Positions 2,488 to 8,741 of a stretch of 41,079 nt of DNA are shown piece by piece. A program made the translations under genes and the position numbers. Under the pieces are notes generated by a model. That model made no database searches and was not told the DNA's origin. It saw nothing but the letters and a program-made list of their open reading frames with translations. The DNA is from a virus (Duplodnaviria; Heunggongvirae; Uroviricota; Caudoviricetes): positions 1 through 41,079 of the IMG/VR virus record IMGVR_UViG_2778261579_000010. One strand, 5' to 3'. The stretch's first letter is position 1, and every line of letters starts with the position of its first letter.

Positions 2488-4206
2488 TCACGATGAGGCT
2501 GTCCATTGAGGCATTGTTAATGTCCACTTATTAATCTCACTCCAATATGTTGCAGTGAATGAAGCGGTCTTTATTTGAGTTGTATTAGCGCCAGTAACAT
2601 CAACAGGAACACCAGCGAAGGAAAGAGCGGCGATATTAGAGCCTCGAACCATCATATTTATCTCTTGTCCGTCATACGGAGTTCCTGTTAACGTAATATT
2701 AAGTCCCGTCGTAACGTTCATACGATAACTACGAAAACCCTCCCTTATTTTTATCGGAAGGGTTTCTGCTGTGTATTGCTTAACCGAGCCTGGCCCCATA
2801 TCAAGCTCTAAGCCATCAACCACACCAAGTTTATCCAGGAATGCCCCCCATATCTTCCCCCCATCGGCTTTACCGTTATTTCCTGATAAAACATTGAATA
2901 CCCCAATGCTTCTATCTGCCGGATTAAATGGACCAATATCAAAATGGTTTGCGCCTGATATTCTCCATTGTGATTCACCGATATTAAGGCTGAAATGTAG
3001 TGGCCCGCTTGAGAAGTAGTAACTACCTGCTGCCAGTGCAATATCTGATACGCCATTACGTTCAAAATATGCGCCCGATATGTAAGTGCTAACACCGGAA
3101 TCAAGAAGTCCATATTTAGCAGTGTTCTGGAAGAAACCGCCAACAATGTTGATAGAAGCAGTGGGCAGCAAATCCTGTCCTTCCGGGAAGTTGAAATCAC
3201 CGTTCATACCGTTAAATATTACAGTGTCGTAATCTGGTAGTGGCCCCAAATGGTCCGCACTATACCCGATGTGGTCTTTTAAGGTTACGGCGTTAACGCC
3301 ATTCCGCAGCATACGACGGACACTCCCTGTACCCCCGTTCAGAATCTCTACATTATCAAGCCGCATTCCGTAGCTGTAATGCTCAATTAACAAGCCAGTA
3401 CAGTTAGTACCTAGACCCATATCAATCCACATGTCACTGATAAGACTGTTATTTCGAACATCATAACCGTGGAAACCGATACAGTTTTTAAAGCCATTCA
3501 AACTGATACGTAATCCGTAGGCTTTAAAATTTCTTACGGTTGTTCCGATATCCTGGGACGACGCTCTCATAACTGTAACACCATCAGCACCAGCTTTTAA
3601 TAACGCACGAGGATGGAACATAATTCTTAAATGCTGATTTGGTTTAAAAGTATCTGCTGTTGTTTTAACAGTGTACTCGCCCTCATTAAAGTAGACACAA
3701 CCACCCGCCGCCAGAATCGTATTAATCTGCGCGTTGGTCATTGTCGGGTAGATGTTTGTTAGTGGGAAAACCCCTTTTTTGATGGCGTAATCCTCAAATA
3801 CACTACCCCCACCGTGTGAACTTCCAACTAATTTGTCCCCTCCAGAAGATGCCAATCTCTTCTCAAACTGATCAGGGTCATACTTCAGAACATTCGGAAA
3901 ATAGAACTGCTGCGCACCATACGCATCATAAACAGCCATAGAGTGGCCTTGCACAGTTACGAACTTGGCAATCTGTCCGTTATATACCGGATATCCAGCA
4001 GCGTTAATGATGATTGGCTGTGCAACAGGAACGTGAGAGCCATCTTCGTTCTCCACATAAACCTGAATCTGGTTTTCAGGATTTACCGGGTCAGTGTCAA
4101 TTTTACCGATATAAATTTTGCCATTGGCAACCGCTTTAAAAGAACGCGCCATAGTGAAGAGTTGTGAAGGCATGCTTACCACAACATTGGCTGTAATGTC
4201 TGTCAT
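2488..4206 (-). CDS. Tailspike protein with P22/Sf6-type N-terminal head-binding domain and a distinct receptor-binding domain
   Basis: 572 aa; first ~115 aa ([34 protein letters not shown]...VLKYDPDQF) match the conserved P22-family tailspike head-binding domain; the remainder is unrelated to the P22 endorhamnosidase as recalled. Confidence 0.85.
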
Positions 4207-4229
4207 TTAATTTGCTCCAGATACAAGGA

Positions 4230-4330
4230 ATCGCCGCAGCGTGGCTACGGTTGGTATTTGTTTGGTTTTTGAACTACGAAAATTTCGTAGTGCCATCCAT
4301 CAAGGCCATCGCCGCAGCGTGGCTACGGTG
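4230..4330. repeat. Two ~22-bp direct repeats (ATCGCCGCAGCGTGGCTACGGT) flanking a palindrome
   Basis: Copies at 4230..4251 and 4309..4330, each preceded by CAAGG; palindrome GAACTACGAAAATTTCGTAGT at about 4271..4291 lies between them; intergenic between tailspike and ant. Confidence 0.6.
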
Positions 4331-4342
4331 AATTTTGGGCAT

Positions 4343-4366
4343 AAAAAAACCCAGCCGAAGCTGGGT
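4343..4366 (-). terminator. Rho-independent terminator downstream of ant
   Basis: Minus-strand hairpin CCCAGCTTCGGCTGGG followed by a run of seven T. Confidence 0.55.
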
Positions 4367-4384
4367 CGTTGCGTTGGTTATCTG

Positions 4385-5320
4385 TCAGTAGTTATGTACT
4401 GAAGGAGGTAATTCTTTATTCTTAAGTCTCATCCATGCGGAAAGATTCGCTGGTCCGTCTGGCTCATTAATATCAACATCTCGTGTGTGATTAATTAAAA
4501 CGTCTCTCGCCATTCCGATAACATACGAGAACTCATGACCGTAGTCGTAGCATCTCCCGGAATAGTTCGATTGAATTTGTTTTAATGCCGGATACAGTTC
4601 GCGGAATAATGCCTGTGAACGGTTGGCATAATCCCATAACCATACAAGGCTGTTTGCTTCTTTTGCAGAAAGCTCGTCGGTTTTCTTCTCTTGTTTGCCA
4701 ATGAACTCACCTTCAAGTGGAACTCGAGCTGCAAGTGATAGTGCTTCGGTAAACTGCTCCTCACTGATCTCTTTGTACGAACATCCAAAATGGGATTTCA
4801 GTGACGACCACATGGTGATCATCGCCTTAGCCTGTTTTTCTTTTGGCAGAGACTGACCGCGACTCATGACGAGCTGTTTAATGGCTTCCTGCTGTTCAGT
4901 GGTGATTTTACCCGGCAACGCCTTTTTAGCTTTGCGTGGATTAACTACATGGCCTTTAGTCCAGTAGTCATGCAGCACGCTAAAGCATTCCTCCTGGTAC
5001 TGAATCAGTTTATCACGGATGTCAGCACGAACTTTCTCAGGGTTGATGCTGAACAGCCATCCATTTAACTTCTTCAAAGGAAGGCAGAGTAGCTTACGAA
5101 GCTTCCCATCAGCGGCAACCATGTTCATATGAACACAGTTGAATTTGCTAATCTGCTTCATGAGTTTTGTTTGCTGCGTTGACCAGCTCATTCCAAGGTT
5201 TTGAACGATTGGCTTCATCGCAACATATGCAACTCCGGCAGCCATAGCGGTGATAATTTGCTGACCGTTGAATGGTACGTAAGAGGTGTTCACTGCTTCT
5301 AAAATTGCTATACTATTCAT
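4385..5320 (-). CDS. ant: Antirepressor Ant (P22 immI type)
   Basis: N-terminus [43 protein letters not shown] matches P22 Ant as recalled; preceded by arc; start taken at the ATG with an upstream GGAG (the ORF extends in frame to 5386). Confidence 0.8.
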
Positions 5321-5388
5321 GTTGGTTTTTCTCCACGGATTTACTGACAACCGAAGCCCTGACTGTTCCCGCAGTTGGGGCTTCAACT

Positions 5389-5550
5389 TTACGCGCCAAT
5401 GCGCCCTTCCTTCTTAAAGCTTTCCATTACTCTCTGATAAATCTCAGAGTTAACAGACCGACCATTCTCTTCCGCCACCTTGCGGACCAAATCCAATACT
5501 TCTTTAGGCCACCGCAAATTGAACTGCGGCATTTTTCTTGCACCTTGCAT
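5389..5550 (-). CDS. arc: Arc repressor (ribbon-helix-helix)
   Basis: 53-aa ORF not in the supplied track: [53 protein letters not shown], near-identical to P22 Arc as recalled. Confidence 0.85.
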
Positions 5551-5643
5551 ATTCAACTCCACTTCATTAAATGGTATTACCGTACTACTATTGAAAGCGT
5601 ACTACTACCGTTCTACCATGTCAATAAATAAAAGGAGAATGAC
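5551..5643. promoter_or_regulatory. Divergent Pant / Pmnt promoter-operator region of immI
   Basis: 93-bp gap between divergent arc and mnt; contains the repeated motif CGTACTACTA (5580s and 5600s). Confidence 0.5.
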
Positions 5644-5886
5644 GTGGCTAGAAATGATCCGCAATTCAACGTAAGAATGCCAGATGAGATAAAACAGCAA
5701 CTTACGCATATTGCTGCAACAAATCGCCGCTCGATAAATGCAGAGATTATTTCAGCTATCGAACTGTGGATAAAAATTCATAAAGAGCAGCTAATACCTT
5801 CAAGTAGTCGAATCCTGACAAAGTCAGAGCAAGAAGCGCTTGATGTAGCTATCGATGTGTTAAAACGTGTGAGAGATGAGGGATAA
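5644..5886 (+). CDS. mnt: Mnt-like ribbon-helix-helix repressor
   Basis: 80 aa; N-terminus MARNDPQFNVRMPDEIKQQL resembles P22 Mnt (MARDDPHFNFRMP...); GTG start with AGGAG 8 nt upstream; divergent from arc-ant. Confidence 0.75.
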   Translation: MARNDPQFNVRMPDEIKQQLTHIAATNRRSINAEIISAIELWIKIHKEQLIPSSSRILTKSEQEALDVAIDVLKRVRDEG

Positions 5887-5888
5887 CC

Positions 5889-6134
5889 ATGGAGCAACAA
5901 CAAGGGTCGCCATTATCATTGATAATTATGGTGATTTTTTTCGTTTTCATCTTTTTTATACCTGCTTTAAAAATATCCAAGAAAGCTGGTTTTGACTGGA
6001 AGATGGCGGTATGTTTAACAATCCCTGGATTCAACGTGGTTGCGTGGCTAGCACTTGCGTTCATGGATTGGCCAATTCATAAGTATCTACCAAAAGACAT
6101 GAATGGGATCATGAGCAAAACTAAGGAGAGTTAA
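5889..6134 (+). CDS. Small membrane protein with two predicted transmembrane helices (mnt-operon cargo)
   Basis: 81 aa; hydrophobic stretches LSLIIMVIFFVFIFFIPAL and VVAWLALAF; GAGGGA RBS; start overlaps the mnt stop. Confidence 0.6.
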   Translation: MEQQQGSPLSLIIMVIFFVFIFFIPALKISKKAGFDWKMAVCLTIPGFNVVAWLALAFMDWPIHKYLPKDMNGIMSKTKES

Positions 6135-6138
6135 CCAT

Positions 6139-6624
6139 ATGAAAAAATCACTGTTAATTATCCCGCTTCTGCTGGCTGGATGCGCAAAAGTAAGTGACTA
6201 CCAAGCAAGTTGCGAACAACGCTATCAAAAGCTTAGCGATATGGCTAATTGCCTTGATGCCAGCGTGAAGAACGACTCACGCATGGCATCAGCACCAACA
6301 CCTAAGCTGTATGTCCTTGCTGCGAAGATGCTCGGACAAGGTGTCGATGAAGGAAAGATAAGTGACGCGCAGGCAAGACTTGAGCTTCAGAATCTTTATG
6401 TTCAATTACAAAGCCAAGAACAAGCCCAACAAATAGCGCAAAGCCAAGCATTCCAGCAGGCTTTATTGAATTATCAGGCTGTAAACACAATGCAAGCGAT
6501 CGAGCAAAAAGCGAGGCAGCCTGTTATAACTCAACCTTACCCAACGCGTGTTGACACCTATACAAACTGCAATTCAGGATTTGGAAATACCGTCACATGC
6601 AACAGTAGCAGCAACATTAGATAA
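6139..6624 (+). CDS. Predicted lipoprotein (signal peptide with lipobox LLAGC), Gln-rich C-terminal half
   Basis: 161 aa; MKKSLLIIPLLLAGC lipobox; AAGGAG RBS; in the P22 sieA position between the ejection genes and immI. Confidence 0.65.
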   Translation: MKKSLLIIPLLLAGCAKVSDYQASCEQRYQKLSDMANCLDASVKNDSRMASAPTPKLYVLAAKMLGQGVDEGKISDAQARLELQNLYVQLQSQEQAQQIAQSQAFQQALLNYQAVNTMQAIEQKARQPVITQPYPTRVDTYTNCNSGFGNTVTCNSSSNIR

Positions 6625-6626
6625 AG

Positions 6627-8741
6627 CTATTCATATTCATTCATACCGCTTAACGAGGCGACAATACCAGCTCTCGACAAGCGATTGAATTCATCGCTAC
6701 CAATAGCATCGCGTATTGCTTTTACGGCGGCCTTATTTGCCATAAATCTGCGTTCCGCCGCCGCTAATGCTTCTTTGCTTCCGCCTGCTCTTACTGCTTT
6801 GGTGGCTTCCTGAACAGCTTTCTCTATCGCATATCGACCACTACGTGTGGTGGCAATTTTAGATACAGCGCCTTTTAACCCAGCGCCAACTAAAGCACCC
6901 GCGGCAGCGCCTGCAATGCCCCCTCCAGCGCCACCAACAATGGCACCTGATGTTGAGTTGGCAATTGCATTTAACACCGTTGATGTGACGTTGGATAAAC
7001 CAGCATCCAGATCGCGTAGTACATTGGCAGTTCTCCCTGTTCTTTCAATATACTGCTGAGGTTTCACTGCCGCTCTTGCAAGAGTGCCATATGCATCAGC
7101 AATTCTTCCAAGTTCTGAGGAATATCTGCTAATGGCTTTTACATTTTGTGGGGTAAGTATCCCTGCGATATGGTTAATTCCTGCTGCATCAGATTTGCCA
7201 CCACGTACACCATGCGAGATAGCATCCTGCAACATTGATGATATAGCAGGAACACGCTCTGATTCTGGCAGCGCGCGGATCATAGAATGGAATCCAGCAG
7301 GACCATTAAGACCTTTAGCTGACGATGCTTGAAGAGATTTTACTCCATTCGTAATCAGTGCATCTGTTGCCAAATCACGCCCAAAAACAGACTCTGCACT
7401 CTCTTGTGCGGATAGCCTCGCTTTAGACAGATCATTAGCTTTTTGCCAGTCATCAAAAAATCCGCCGTTTTCCGCCATTGTGCGCATATCATCAGTAATT
7501 GCCCGACGTATTTCCCCTGCTCTCCTTGCCGCATTTGCCTCTCCACTACGCTTATATTTTTGCTCCGCATCAGCAAATTTCGCTCTCCATGCTTTCATGC
7601 CATCAAATGTTACTCCACCTTGATTGTTTGCCTGAACAAACTGTTTCATTTCAGGAGTAAGCGGTATGCCAGCAGATCGCTCTGCCTGAATAACGGCATT
7701 ACCATTTAGCATTCTTGCTTTTTGATTTGGCATTGTTGACCGCACGTCATCCCATGCCGCGCGCTCAGCATCCTTCATCTGATCAAGATTTTGAAGAATC
7801 CTTTGTTTTATAGCCGCACTTTTTTCTGATGCCGTTCCAGATGCGGCCCCAAATTCATCAAGGTTTCGACTTAACTTTGATGATATTTCGTTAAATGCTG
7901 CCTGATGGGCATCCTGAACAATCCCTGGTGTTGATGCCAATGCGCCTTCGGCTTGTGCAATTCCACGACTTCCAGATCGCATTCCTGGTGTTAATGCGTT
8001 TATATCAATTCCAGCAGACTCAGCCGCTTTTGCTACATCTTCGGACACATTAGCGGCCTGACTGGCAATTGACTGACGCCCAGCACCTGACTTTGCCATC
8101 TTGGAAACATCATTAGCAGAATTCAGTGCTGCACCACCAAGAGCCTGTGAAACCCTTGGCGCAATAACGCGCCCGACACCTGAAAGAACGCCTTGAGCAC
8201 CAATATTGATACCACCGTTAATGGCAGCATTTTGTGCAAAATCACCCTCCTGATTTGCAGCATCAGCAAGAGAACCGGCAATCATGTTTCCTGCGGAACC
8301 GATGTCTCCTGCGAGCTTTGCTGGCGCTCCAGCAGCTTTTGCTGCTGTGCCAATTGGCAGGAGATACCCACCAATTGTTTCACCGGCTTGCGCATAAGGG
8401 TCTGTCGGTCGATCGACTGGACGATAGACATCATCCAAAACCTTGGGGCCACCAAGCCCCTGGCTGATTGCATTAATCAGACTTGCGCCACCCTGCAATA
8501 CGTCAAATGGTATGTTTACCAGACCACGGCCAGCCTGTTCTGCAATTTGCCCTGCGCTTTGACCACCAGTGAGCCAGTCAGTGGCTTTTCCTACCAGAGA
8601 TTGTTCTTCTGGCTGCGATTGGTTTTGAGTGGATTGATCACCAGAAGACAGCATCTGAGCAATGCGACGTGCTCCCTCAGTATCGCCGGCAGCATCAGCA
8701 TTCCTTAACGCCGTCATCAACTGTTCGCGACTATAGGCCAT
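6627..8741 (-). CDS. Ejection (injection) protein, P22 gp16-like
   Basis: 704 aa, Ala/Gly-rich; last of three consecutive ejection-protein ORFs in P22 gene order (7-20-16). Confidence 0.7.

Follow-up and report, generated by a model that had tools for sequence, protein, structure and literature searches.

In P22-like phages, the 'ant moron' between gene 16 and the tailspike gene is a region with unusually high genetic flux, in which degraded ant genes have been described for HK620 and Scho1 (Villafane et al., 2008; PMC2629481). The HK620 record labels its tANT as 'associated with remnant of P22 ant gene'. The block of DNA analyzed here, a pair of direct repeats (R) around a palindrome, is located at this same locus. 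It differs from the degraded ant genes in that its relic stems from a P1-Ant-like anti-repressor gene instead of a P22-type ant gene, and in that this relic lies downstream of an intact ant gene, between two copies of the tailspike leader. The parent gene is similar in its N-terminus to Ant1/Ant2 of phages P1 and P7, with a weaker version of the palindrome hairpin in P1; the sequence under study, by contrast, keeps just ~22 codons. A further comparison is offered by the 'boundary sequences' of lambdoid phages. The repeat together with the Shine-Dalgarno (SD) leader behaves alike, as homology between alternative modules begins there, and the GenBank record of CUS-3 indeed labels the ant-tailspike spacer 'bsq1; boundary sequence'. 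The present case differs in that the linker occurs twice in one genome, presumably via unequal illegitimate exchange. Two published observations on transcription have no direct bearing on the block, namely the influence of the P22 ant moron on tailspike read-through (Villafane et al., 2008; PMC2629481) and the antisense RNA over the tailspike gene's 5' end in BTP1 (Owen et al.).

The window, the whole stretch of 41,079 nucleotides that was analyzed, comprises the end of a prophage, in which a host gene of the formate/nitrite transporter family and then a phage integrase gene (1–2402) precede the tailspike gene. The tailspike gene abuts the integrase gene, without O-antigen-modification genes between them in the window. 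Further along, a sar antisense RNA was detected at 5321–5388 on the plus strand (95.6 bits), and the region encodes two ribbon-helix-helix repressors. On the minus strand, the ant stop (4385) is followed by the terminator t_ant, R1, the palindrome, R2, the SD sequence GGAG (4218–4215) and the tailspike ATG (4206), in agreement with the predicted position downstream of the ant terminator and upstream of the tailspike gene. The features of the spacer and its flanking genes are as follows:

4385–5320, minus strand: ant, P22-type antirepressor gene (open reading frame; Pfam P22_AR_N E = 2e-44, P22_AR_C E = 1.5e-29)
4343–4367, minus strand: t_ant, intrinsic terminator GACCCAGC-TTCG-GCTGGGTT plus a T-run, with the hairpin at 4367–4348 (terminator scan)
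4330–4342, minus strand: linker ATGCCCAAAATTC ('context i'), the usual 5' flank of R after the ant terminator (alignment)
4308–4329, minus strand: R1, promoter-proximal copy of the 22-nt leader element ACCGTAGCCACGCTGCGGCGAT (comparison with P22, L129 and 13KWH46)
4257–4321, minus strand: relic of a PHROG-1726 (P1 Ant2-like) anti-repressor gene, codons ~46–67 (blastn, tblastn, PHROG)
4273–4291, minus strand: palindrome ACTACGAAA-T-TTTCGTAGT, a 9-bp hairpin at the parent codons (H)YEIFV(V)
4252–4262, minus strand: AACAAATACCA, remnant of the linker 'context ii', the flank of R where mnt abuts the tailspike gene
4230–4251, minus strand: R2, resident copy of the leader element, which always accompanies the tailspike SD
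4204–4229, minus strand: conserved tailspike leader TCCTTGTATCTGGAGCAAATTAAATG, with SD GGAG at 4215–4218 and ATG at 4204–4206 (alignment)
2488–4206, minus strand: tailspike gene encoding 572 aa, of which residues 1–113 form a P22-type head-binding domain (Pfam Head_binding E = 2e-67)

The repeat ATCGCCGCAGCGTGGCTACGGT (plus strand) is present in exactly two copies in the window, at 4230–4251 and 4308–4329, as originally predicted, and a search allowing up to three mismatches gave no further copies there (chance expectation 0). The copies are spaced 78 bp start-to-start, not 79 bp as claimed, with a gap of 56 bp. Both are preceded by the CAAGG mentioned in the original prediction (4224–4228 and 4301–4305), at offsets that differ (1 and 2 nt). 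The predicted palindrome was found between them as a perfect inverted repeat of ACTACGAAA and TTTCGTAGT around one central base (4273–4291), which occurs once in the window. A site matching t_ant is annotated as a terminator in the records of epsilon34, P22 and HK620, and the context i linker is invariant in the spacer alignment and the commonest 5' flank of R in IMG/VR.

A blastn search with the block against 2.3 Gb of phage records identified a match of 53 nt (86.8% identity, E = 8e-9) to gp080 of Klebsiella phage phiKp_30, and further matches inside coding sequences annotated as antirepressor in many Stx2a phages. Locally, 36 nt match at 97% identity, and tblastn aligned residues 46–67 of gp080 with window positions 4322–4257 (68% identity over 22 aa, E = 2e-5). 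The family corresponds to PHROG 1726 'anti-repressor' (E = 3e-100); Pfam and NCBIfam returned no model for it. Residues 14–106 of the parent protein show 59–69% identity to the N-terminal part of P1/P7 Ant2. In an alignment to anti-repressors of 242–245 aa, the window insert corresponds to codons ~46–67 and the insert of P22 to codons ~46–75; the P22 ant-gene 9 spacer matches the same anti-repressor gene over 80 ungapped nt at 77.5% identity. Together, these alignments clearly indicate that the interior of a PHROG-1726/P1-Ant2-like gene is the source of the 56 bp between the R copies and of the 3' half of R1.

Read in the frame of the parent gene, the relic gives PRCGDGLDGWHYEIFVVQKPNK; this frame lacks a start, is cut at both ends and ends at a TAG inside R2. 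No minus-strand open reading frame of at least 30 aa is present between 4207 and 4384, and a full-length copy of a PHROG-1726 gene was not found in the window. As judged from the reading frame, the ~22 codons are unable to make an anti-repressor protein. Two plus-strand open reading frames (4212–4331 and 4241–4402) were discarded as spurious, being interrupted in every relative with a single R. Immediately 5' of R, the linker at 4331–4339 (AAAATTCACCG) resembles AAATTCATCG at nt 122–136 of the anti-repressor gene of phage JEP4, 13 nt upstream of the part homologous to the relic, and AAATTCAyCG is common to R and the anti-repressor gene. This very short match could be due to chance, could represent a second microhomology, or could mean that R is itself an older relic of the same gene.

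Relatives of the window differ in the presence and the length of the block. In a megablast search of phage records, the spacer is matched by CUS-3, epsilon34, HK620, phiv205-1, N7 and others as two separate segments whose distance is shorter by 78 bp, and alignment shows a single R and no insert in these five phages. P22 contains two imperfect R copies and a longer insert, in a 110-bp version of the relic. We collected 122 informative instances, almost all of them from an IMG/VR scan for the 3' flank of t_ant, supplemented with reference loci and the window. A single R is present in 109 of these, the 78-bp form in seven and the P22-type 110/111-bp form in six. About 89% of the relatives with an identical ant terminator, leader and tailspike N-terminus thus lack the block, which marks it as a dispensable minority form. 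Among the leaders that carry a relic, the R1-R2 spacing is 78, 110 or 116 bp and the second hairpin also differs between the forms; the spacing of 116 nt is found in L181 (11960–12060), where an internal tandem duplication of ~38 nt includes half of the palindrome. Matches to the insert in public collections lie solely at the ant-tailspike locus or inside anti-repressor genes; when genome contigs were scanned with a pattern specific to the relic, just three hits came up, all due to chance and in MAGs without relation to these phages. A description of the block was not found in the literature searched, to which the P22 sequencing papers of the 1980s did not belong, and the repeats could have been noticed earlier in P22.

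Other departures from the common arrangement were observed at this junction. In phage Kapi1 (L007 2004–2504), a gene for an HNH endonuclease on the opposite strand is located between the ant-terminator/R/SD leader and the tailspike gene, a different kind of insertion. In JEP4 (L194 3650–3900), L151 and L130, R-SD and the start ATGACAGAYAT are followed after ~5 codons by unrelated A+T-rich DNA; the annotated tailspike of JEP4 starts ~200 nt further on, and the leader there is a relic of the 5' end of a replaced tailspike gene.

P22-like phages often carry the PHROG-1726 gene in this region as an alternative to ant. JEP4 has, one after the other, gene 16, a c2-like repressor gene, Rha, the anti-repressor gene, a gene of 73 aa, mnt (opposite strand) and the tailspike gene, and in IMG/VR contigs the distance from the end of the anti-repressor gene to the tailspike SD is 399, 501 or 710 nt. 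In L212, of the 399-nt type, the anti-repressor gene and the 73-aa gene are followed by the same terminator, the ATGCCCAAAATTC linker and R-SD-tailspike. In the 501- and 710-nt types the leader directly adjoins mnt, and R is preceded by a different flank, GGTATGYAACAAAYRCYM (context ii); the GCAACAAATACCAACCGTAGCC beside mnt-adjacent copies of R (L142, L154 and others) is identical to the flank of R2 in the window. R-SD precedes head-binding tailspikes in at least four contexts, including after t_ant, after the terminator of the 73-aa gene and beside mnt, with two further contexts besides. These contexts show R with the SD leader to be the conserved left edge of the tailspike module, whatever gene lies upstream. 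In L154 a P22-type relic has been transplanted to the mnt-adjacent context, with the switch inside R. As a separate observation, in the FDAARGOS_1288 prophage (L230 4373–7555), L143 and L200 the ant-moron genes and their terminator are likewise present, but a tail module of the baseplate type (baseplate J/gp47, plug protein) comes next in place of the head-binding tailspike.

The two ends of the insert could be traced to short stretches of microhomology. At the left joint, R1 of the P22-type relics reads ACCGTAGCCACGC|TTAGGTAATGAGCTTGAAGG, and the parent gene (allele A-R-I-K-D-E-L-E-G) reads GCACGC|ATTAAGGATGAACTTGAAGG at this point, leaving a 5-nt CACGC microhomology. In the window, the 5' half of R1 appears to be the original copy of the linker and its 3' half to overlie the CACGC recombination joint (4317–4321), since converted to the sequence of R2. 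At the right joint of the window, the gene-derived CAAACAA is followed by ATACCA-R2, and the AACAAATACCAACCGTAGCC found there is identical to the context ii that other phages have beside mnt. Context ii also exists in another variant, to which a further subtype of the relic (ATACTC) corresponds; the P22-type and L163-type relics end in context i (AAAATTC) instead. Comparison of these flanks shows R1 of the window to have a flank of the ant-terminator type and R2 one of the mnt-adjacent type; the two copies thus trace back to separate junctions between modules. The right joint itself is probably a deletion at an AACAA microhomology.

A contig that keeps more of the trapped gene is L129, from IMG/VR, which is identical to the prophage of E. 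coli FDAARGOS_1288. It contains mnt, arc, ant, t_ant, the 5' half of R1, CACGC|TTAGGTAATGAGCTTGAAGG, the remaining open reading frame of the anti-repressor gene and the 73-aa gene; its left joint is exactly that of P22, and the open reading frame is called by PGAP as a pseudogene 'missing N-terminus'. We searched for the complete intermediate (ant, t_ant, a truncated R1, the truncated gene, further sequence, R2 and a head-binding tailspike) and did not find it in viral and metagenome contigs, where L129 was the sole result; the complete genomes of E. coli gave one case, with a different tail module downstream. L129 could also be secondary, produced by homologous recombination of a relic with a full-length gene, so that it does not fix the order of events.

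We consider it probable that recombination in the hypervariable ant moron of a P22-like prophage left the block behind as a scar, a relic of another anti-repressor gene, and that it is probably not a control element. An illegitimate crossover at CACGC would have joined [mnt-arc-ant-t_ant-R] to the interior of the anti-repressor gene of another phage, and as this second phage would have carried its own R-SD-tailspike junction, R would have been duplicated. A later deletion of ~1 kb at AACAA could then have removed the rest of the gene and its neighbours to leave the 78-bp unit; in general, deletions at microhomologies would trim the trapped gene to 110 or 78 bp, and homologous exchange in R and the relic would spread and shuffle the pieces (e.g., in L154 and L181). 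The palindrome would simply have been carried in from the parent gene, and a polymerase that passes t_ant would just transcribe 78 extra, structured nucleotides. Templated insertion of a short fragment in one step (template switching) may lead to an identical arrangement. As a point against the scar reading, many lineages have kept the relic, despite the flanking direct repeats that are expected to favour its deletion. The original prediction listed a footprint of module exchange among its readings, and this one is borne out by an insert that matches a fragment of an alternative anti-repressor gene and by R copies flanked by two types of junction.

The identity of the two R copies in the window is exceptional. 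We compared R1 and R2 in 25 distinct relic-bearing leaders, in 24 of which both copies could be scored. The copies differ at 3–7 of the 22 positions in 22 of these variants; the window (CAC/CAC) and L130 (CAT/CAT) alone have two copies without a difference. The nearest relative of the window is a prophage of E. coli 13KWH46 (L272), which has the same integrase-tailspike position and shares 193 of 201 nt with it. Of the eight mismatches, five are clustered within 10 nt of R1, and each of them brings R1 of the window into agreement with its R2. Such clustering appears to be the signature of recent short-patch gene conversion between 22-nt repeats 78 bp apart, which would have made R1 identical to R2 in the lineage of the window. 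The donor could be R2 of the same genome or, in a co-infection, the R of the other phage. A series can be followed in the 3' half of R1, from TTAGGTAAT in P22 through CTAAGCGGCGAT and CTCAGCGGCGAT to CGCTGCGGCGAT in the window, and this gradation shows a progressive homogenization of a joint that was originally half gene-derived. The situation is comparable to the concerted evolution of short repeats, in that the copies of R are equal within the window and within L130 and differ between genomes, but the putative conversion tract in the window is only ~11–22 nt.

The palindrome of the window is also found inside coding sequence, as a 9-bp hairpin in PHROG-1726/P1-Ant-like genes of phages of Enterobacteria, Hamiltonella, Erwinia, Shewanella and Acinetobacter. 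Besides the relic in the window (4273–4291), its sites include L005 (2501–2553), JEP4 (L194, ~2500–2540), L273–L276 and P1 (L231, ~1320–1345). Three main alleles were distinguished, ACTACGAAA-T-TTTCGTAGT, GCACTACAC-AAAAA-GTGTAGTGC and GACCTACAC-AAAAA-GTGTAGGTC, and the hairpin alleles encode different peptides (HYEIFVV, HYTKSVV and TYTKSVG). Across 20 distinct coding and relic sequences 96% of the cells are paired, and in six of the nine pairs both partners have changed, a result that neither shuffles nor slid registers approach. The ~40-nt stretch around the hairpin is one of two peaks of nucleotide identity, also when genes of Klebsiella, Shewanella and Acinetobacter phages are compared with each other. 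Identity in 30-nt windows is 0.80–0.87 at the hairpin versus ~0.3–0.7 over most of the aligned N-terminal part; the other peak, where RESKAVRR is encoded, also attains 0.80 in one pair. At the hairpin stretch eleven consecutive codons are without synonymous change, and the hairpin is absent from Rfam. Palindrome-templated mutation could contribute to the covariation. That the hairpin is itself a functional nucleic-acid element, and that relics of it are retained and kept paired as a cis element in the tailspike leader, is in our opinion doubtful; such an element might adjust the output of tailspike after t_ant as a signal for the processing or stability of the RNA or for pausing.

The original prediction also proposed a regulatory or protein-binding element, and this reading fared poorly. 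No sigma-70 promoter (-35/-10 with 16–18 nt spacing) was detected on the minus strand between 3900 and 5700, the terminator scan between ant and the tailspike gene identified only t_ant (4367–4348), and the palindrome itself did not qualify as a terminator, having an A+T-rich stem followed by UCAAAAA and no U-tract on either strand. A scan of 3000–7000 with Rfam 15 (E ≤ 1) returned only the sar RNA and one sub-threshold chance hit. The search for the repeat in P22-like relatives, proposed as a check together with the prediction, disfavours regulation as well, as the block is absent or variable there and missing in ~89% of the relatives with the same flanks, a finding that the prediction had named among those that would refute it. 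Most likely, judging from these comparisons, the block is a neutral passenger that has no function of its own in tailspike expression.

The rival that deserves most attention is an RNA structure that has been co-opted in cis, in which the inherited hairpin, and maybe a stem-loop of ~100 nt closed by pairing of R1 with R2, acts in the tailspike leader; such an RNA might be a processing or stability element, or might modulate the yield of tailspike from transcripts that extend past t_ant. The minimum free energy fold of the leader (-58.2 kcal/mol, z = -3.5, with none of 200 shuffles as stable) indeed has R1 and R2 paired, enclosing the palindrome, and the same long-range pairing is found in roughly half of the relic variants, including P22. 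This pairing follows automatically from the duplication, however, because the duplicated motif is self-complementary (CCGUAGC-CAC-GCUGCGG). None of the 25 relic variants has a disrupted hairpin, P22 shows a relic-specific compensatory change from C-G to A-U, and C-to-U changes in L170 and L187 keep a G.U pair, with pairing only in the sense RNA; an unbroken hairpin combined with a compensatory change hints weakly at maintenance. Moreover, the retained fragment is among the most nucleotide-conserved stretches of the parent gene, and an effect of the ant moron on tailspike read-through has been noted in P22 (PMC2629481). On the other hand, relics with identical flanks carry different hairpin alleles, which match the alleles of the coding sequences, and this pattern points to patch conversion from the genes rather than to selection in place. 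Taken with the rarity of the block among relatives with the same flanks, the variable length and second hairpin (78, 110 and 116 bp) and the lack of a promoter and of a U-tract on either strand, we regard a co-opted RNA structure as unlikely.

A double-stranded operator, in which the 19-bp palindrome would bind a dimeric regulator (Arc, Mnt or another) with the R copies as half-sites, is far less probable still. A near-perfect palindrome in a region that encodes two ribbon-helix-helix repressors, and the conservation of R beside the tailspike start, would suit such a site, but the stems covary (six of nine pairs changed on both sides) and the second and third alleles have an asymmetric AAAAA loop, so that the pattern is that of a single-strand hairpin and not of a conserved operator sequence. 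The palindrome is in addition part of the coding sequence of the parent gene, even in Shewanella and Acinetobacter phages without this immI set, is missing in most relatives, and is unlike the annotated arc/mnt operators, which are located ~1.3 kb away between arc and mnt. Least probable of all is the insertion of a miniature mobile element, for which the 22-bp repeats would be the duplicated target site. Direct repeats that flank an insert missing from relatives give the block a superficial likeness to such an element, yet the 56-bp insert (4252–4307) has no terminal inverted repeats, R and the palindrome are confined to this locus in the window, and matches in the collections are found just at this locus or inside anti-repressor genes. 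The 'duplication' is also imperfect, with a chimeric R1 in 22 of the 24 scorable carriers and different 5' flanks of the two copies, and 22 bp would be unusual for a target duplication. The absence of terminal inverted repeats, the single locus, the chimeric R1 and the unlike flanks effectively rule out a MITE and, on the same grounds, a REP-like element, as the original prediction had already judged for REP sequences.

As a recombination scar, the block represents a known kind of structure in a newly resolved instance, in which the remnant of a gene marks a mosaic joint of the P22 ant moron. It forms a compact and readable case of ant-moron turnover, in which the spacer can be read as a dated series of illegitimate exchange of alternative anti-repressor modules, deletions at microhomologies and short-patch gene conversion. 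This reading would also explain the long-sequenced ant-gene 9 spacer of P22, which carries a longer version of the same relic, and it cautions annotators not to take the block for a regulatory site. The covarying, nucleotide-hyperconserved hairpin in a widespread family of anti-repressors is a by-product of the analysis that may perhaps be of greater interest.
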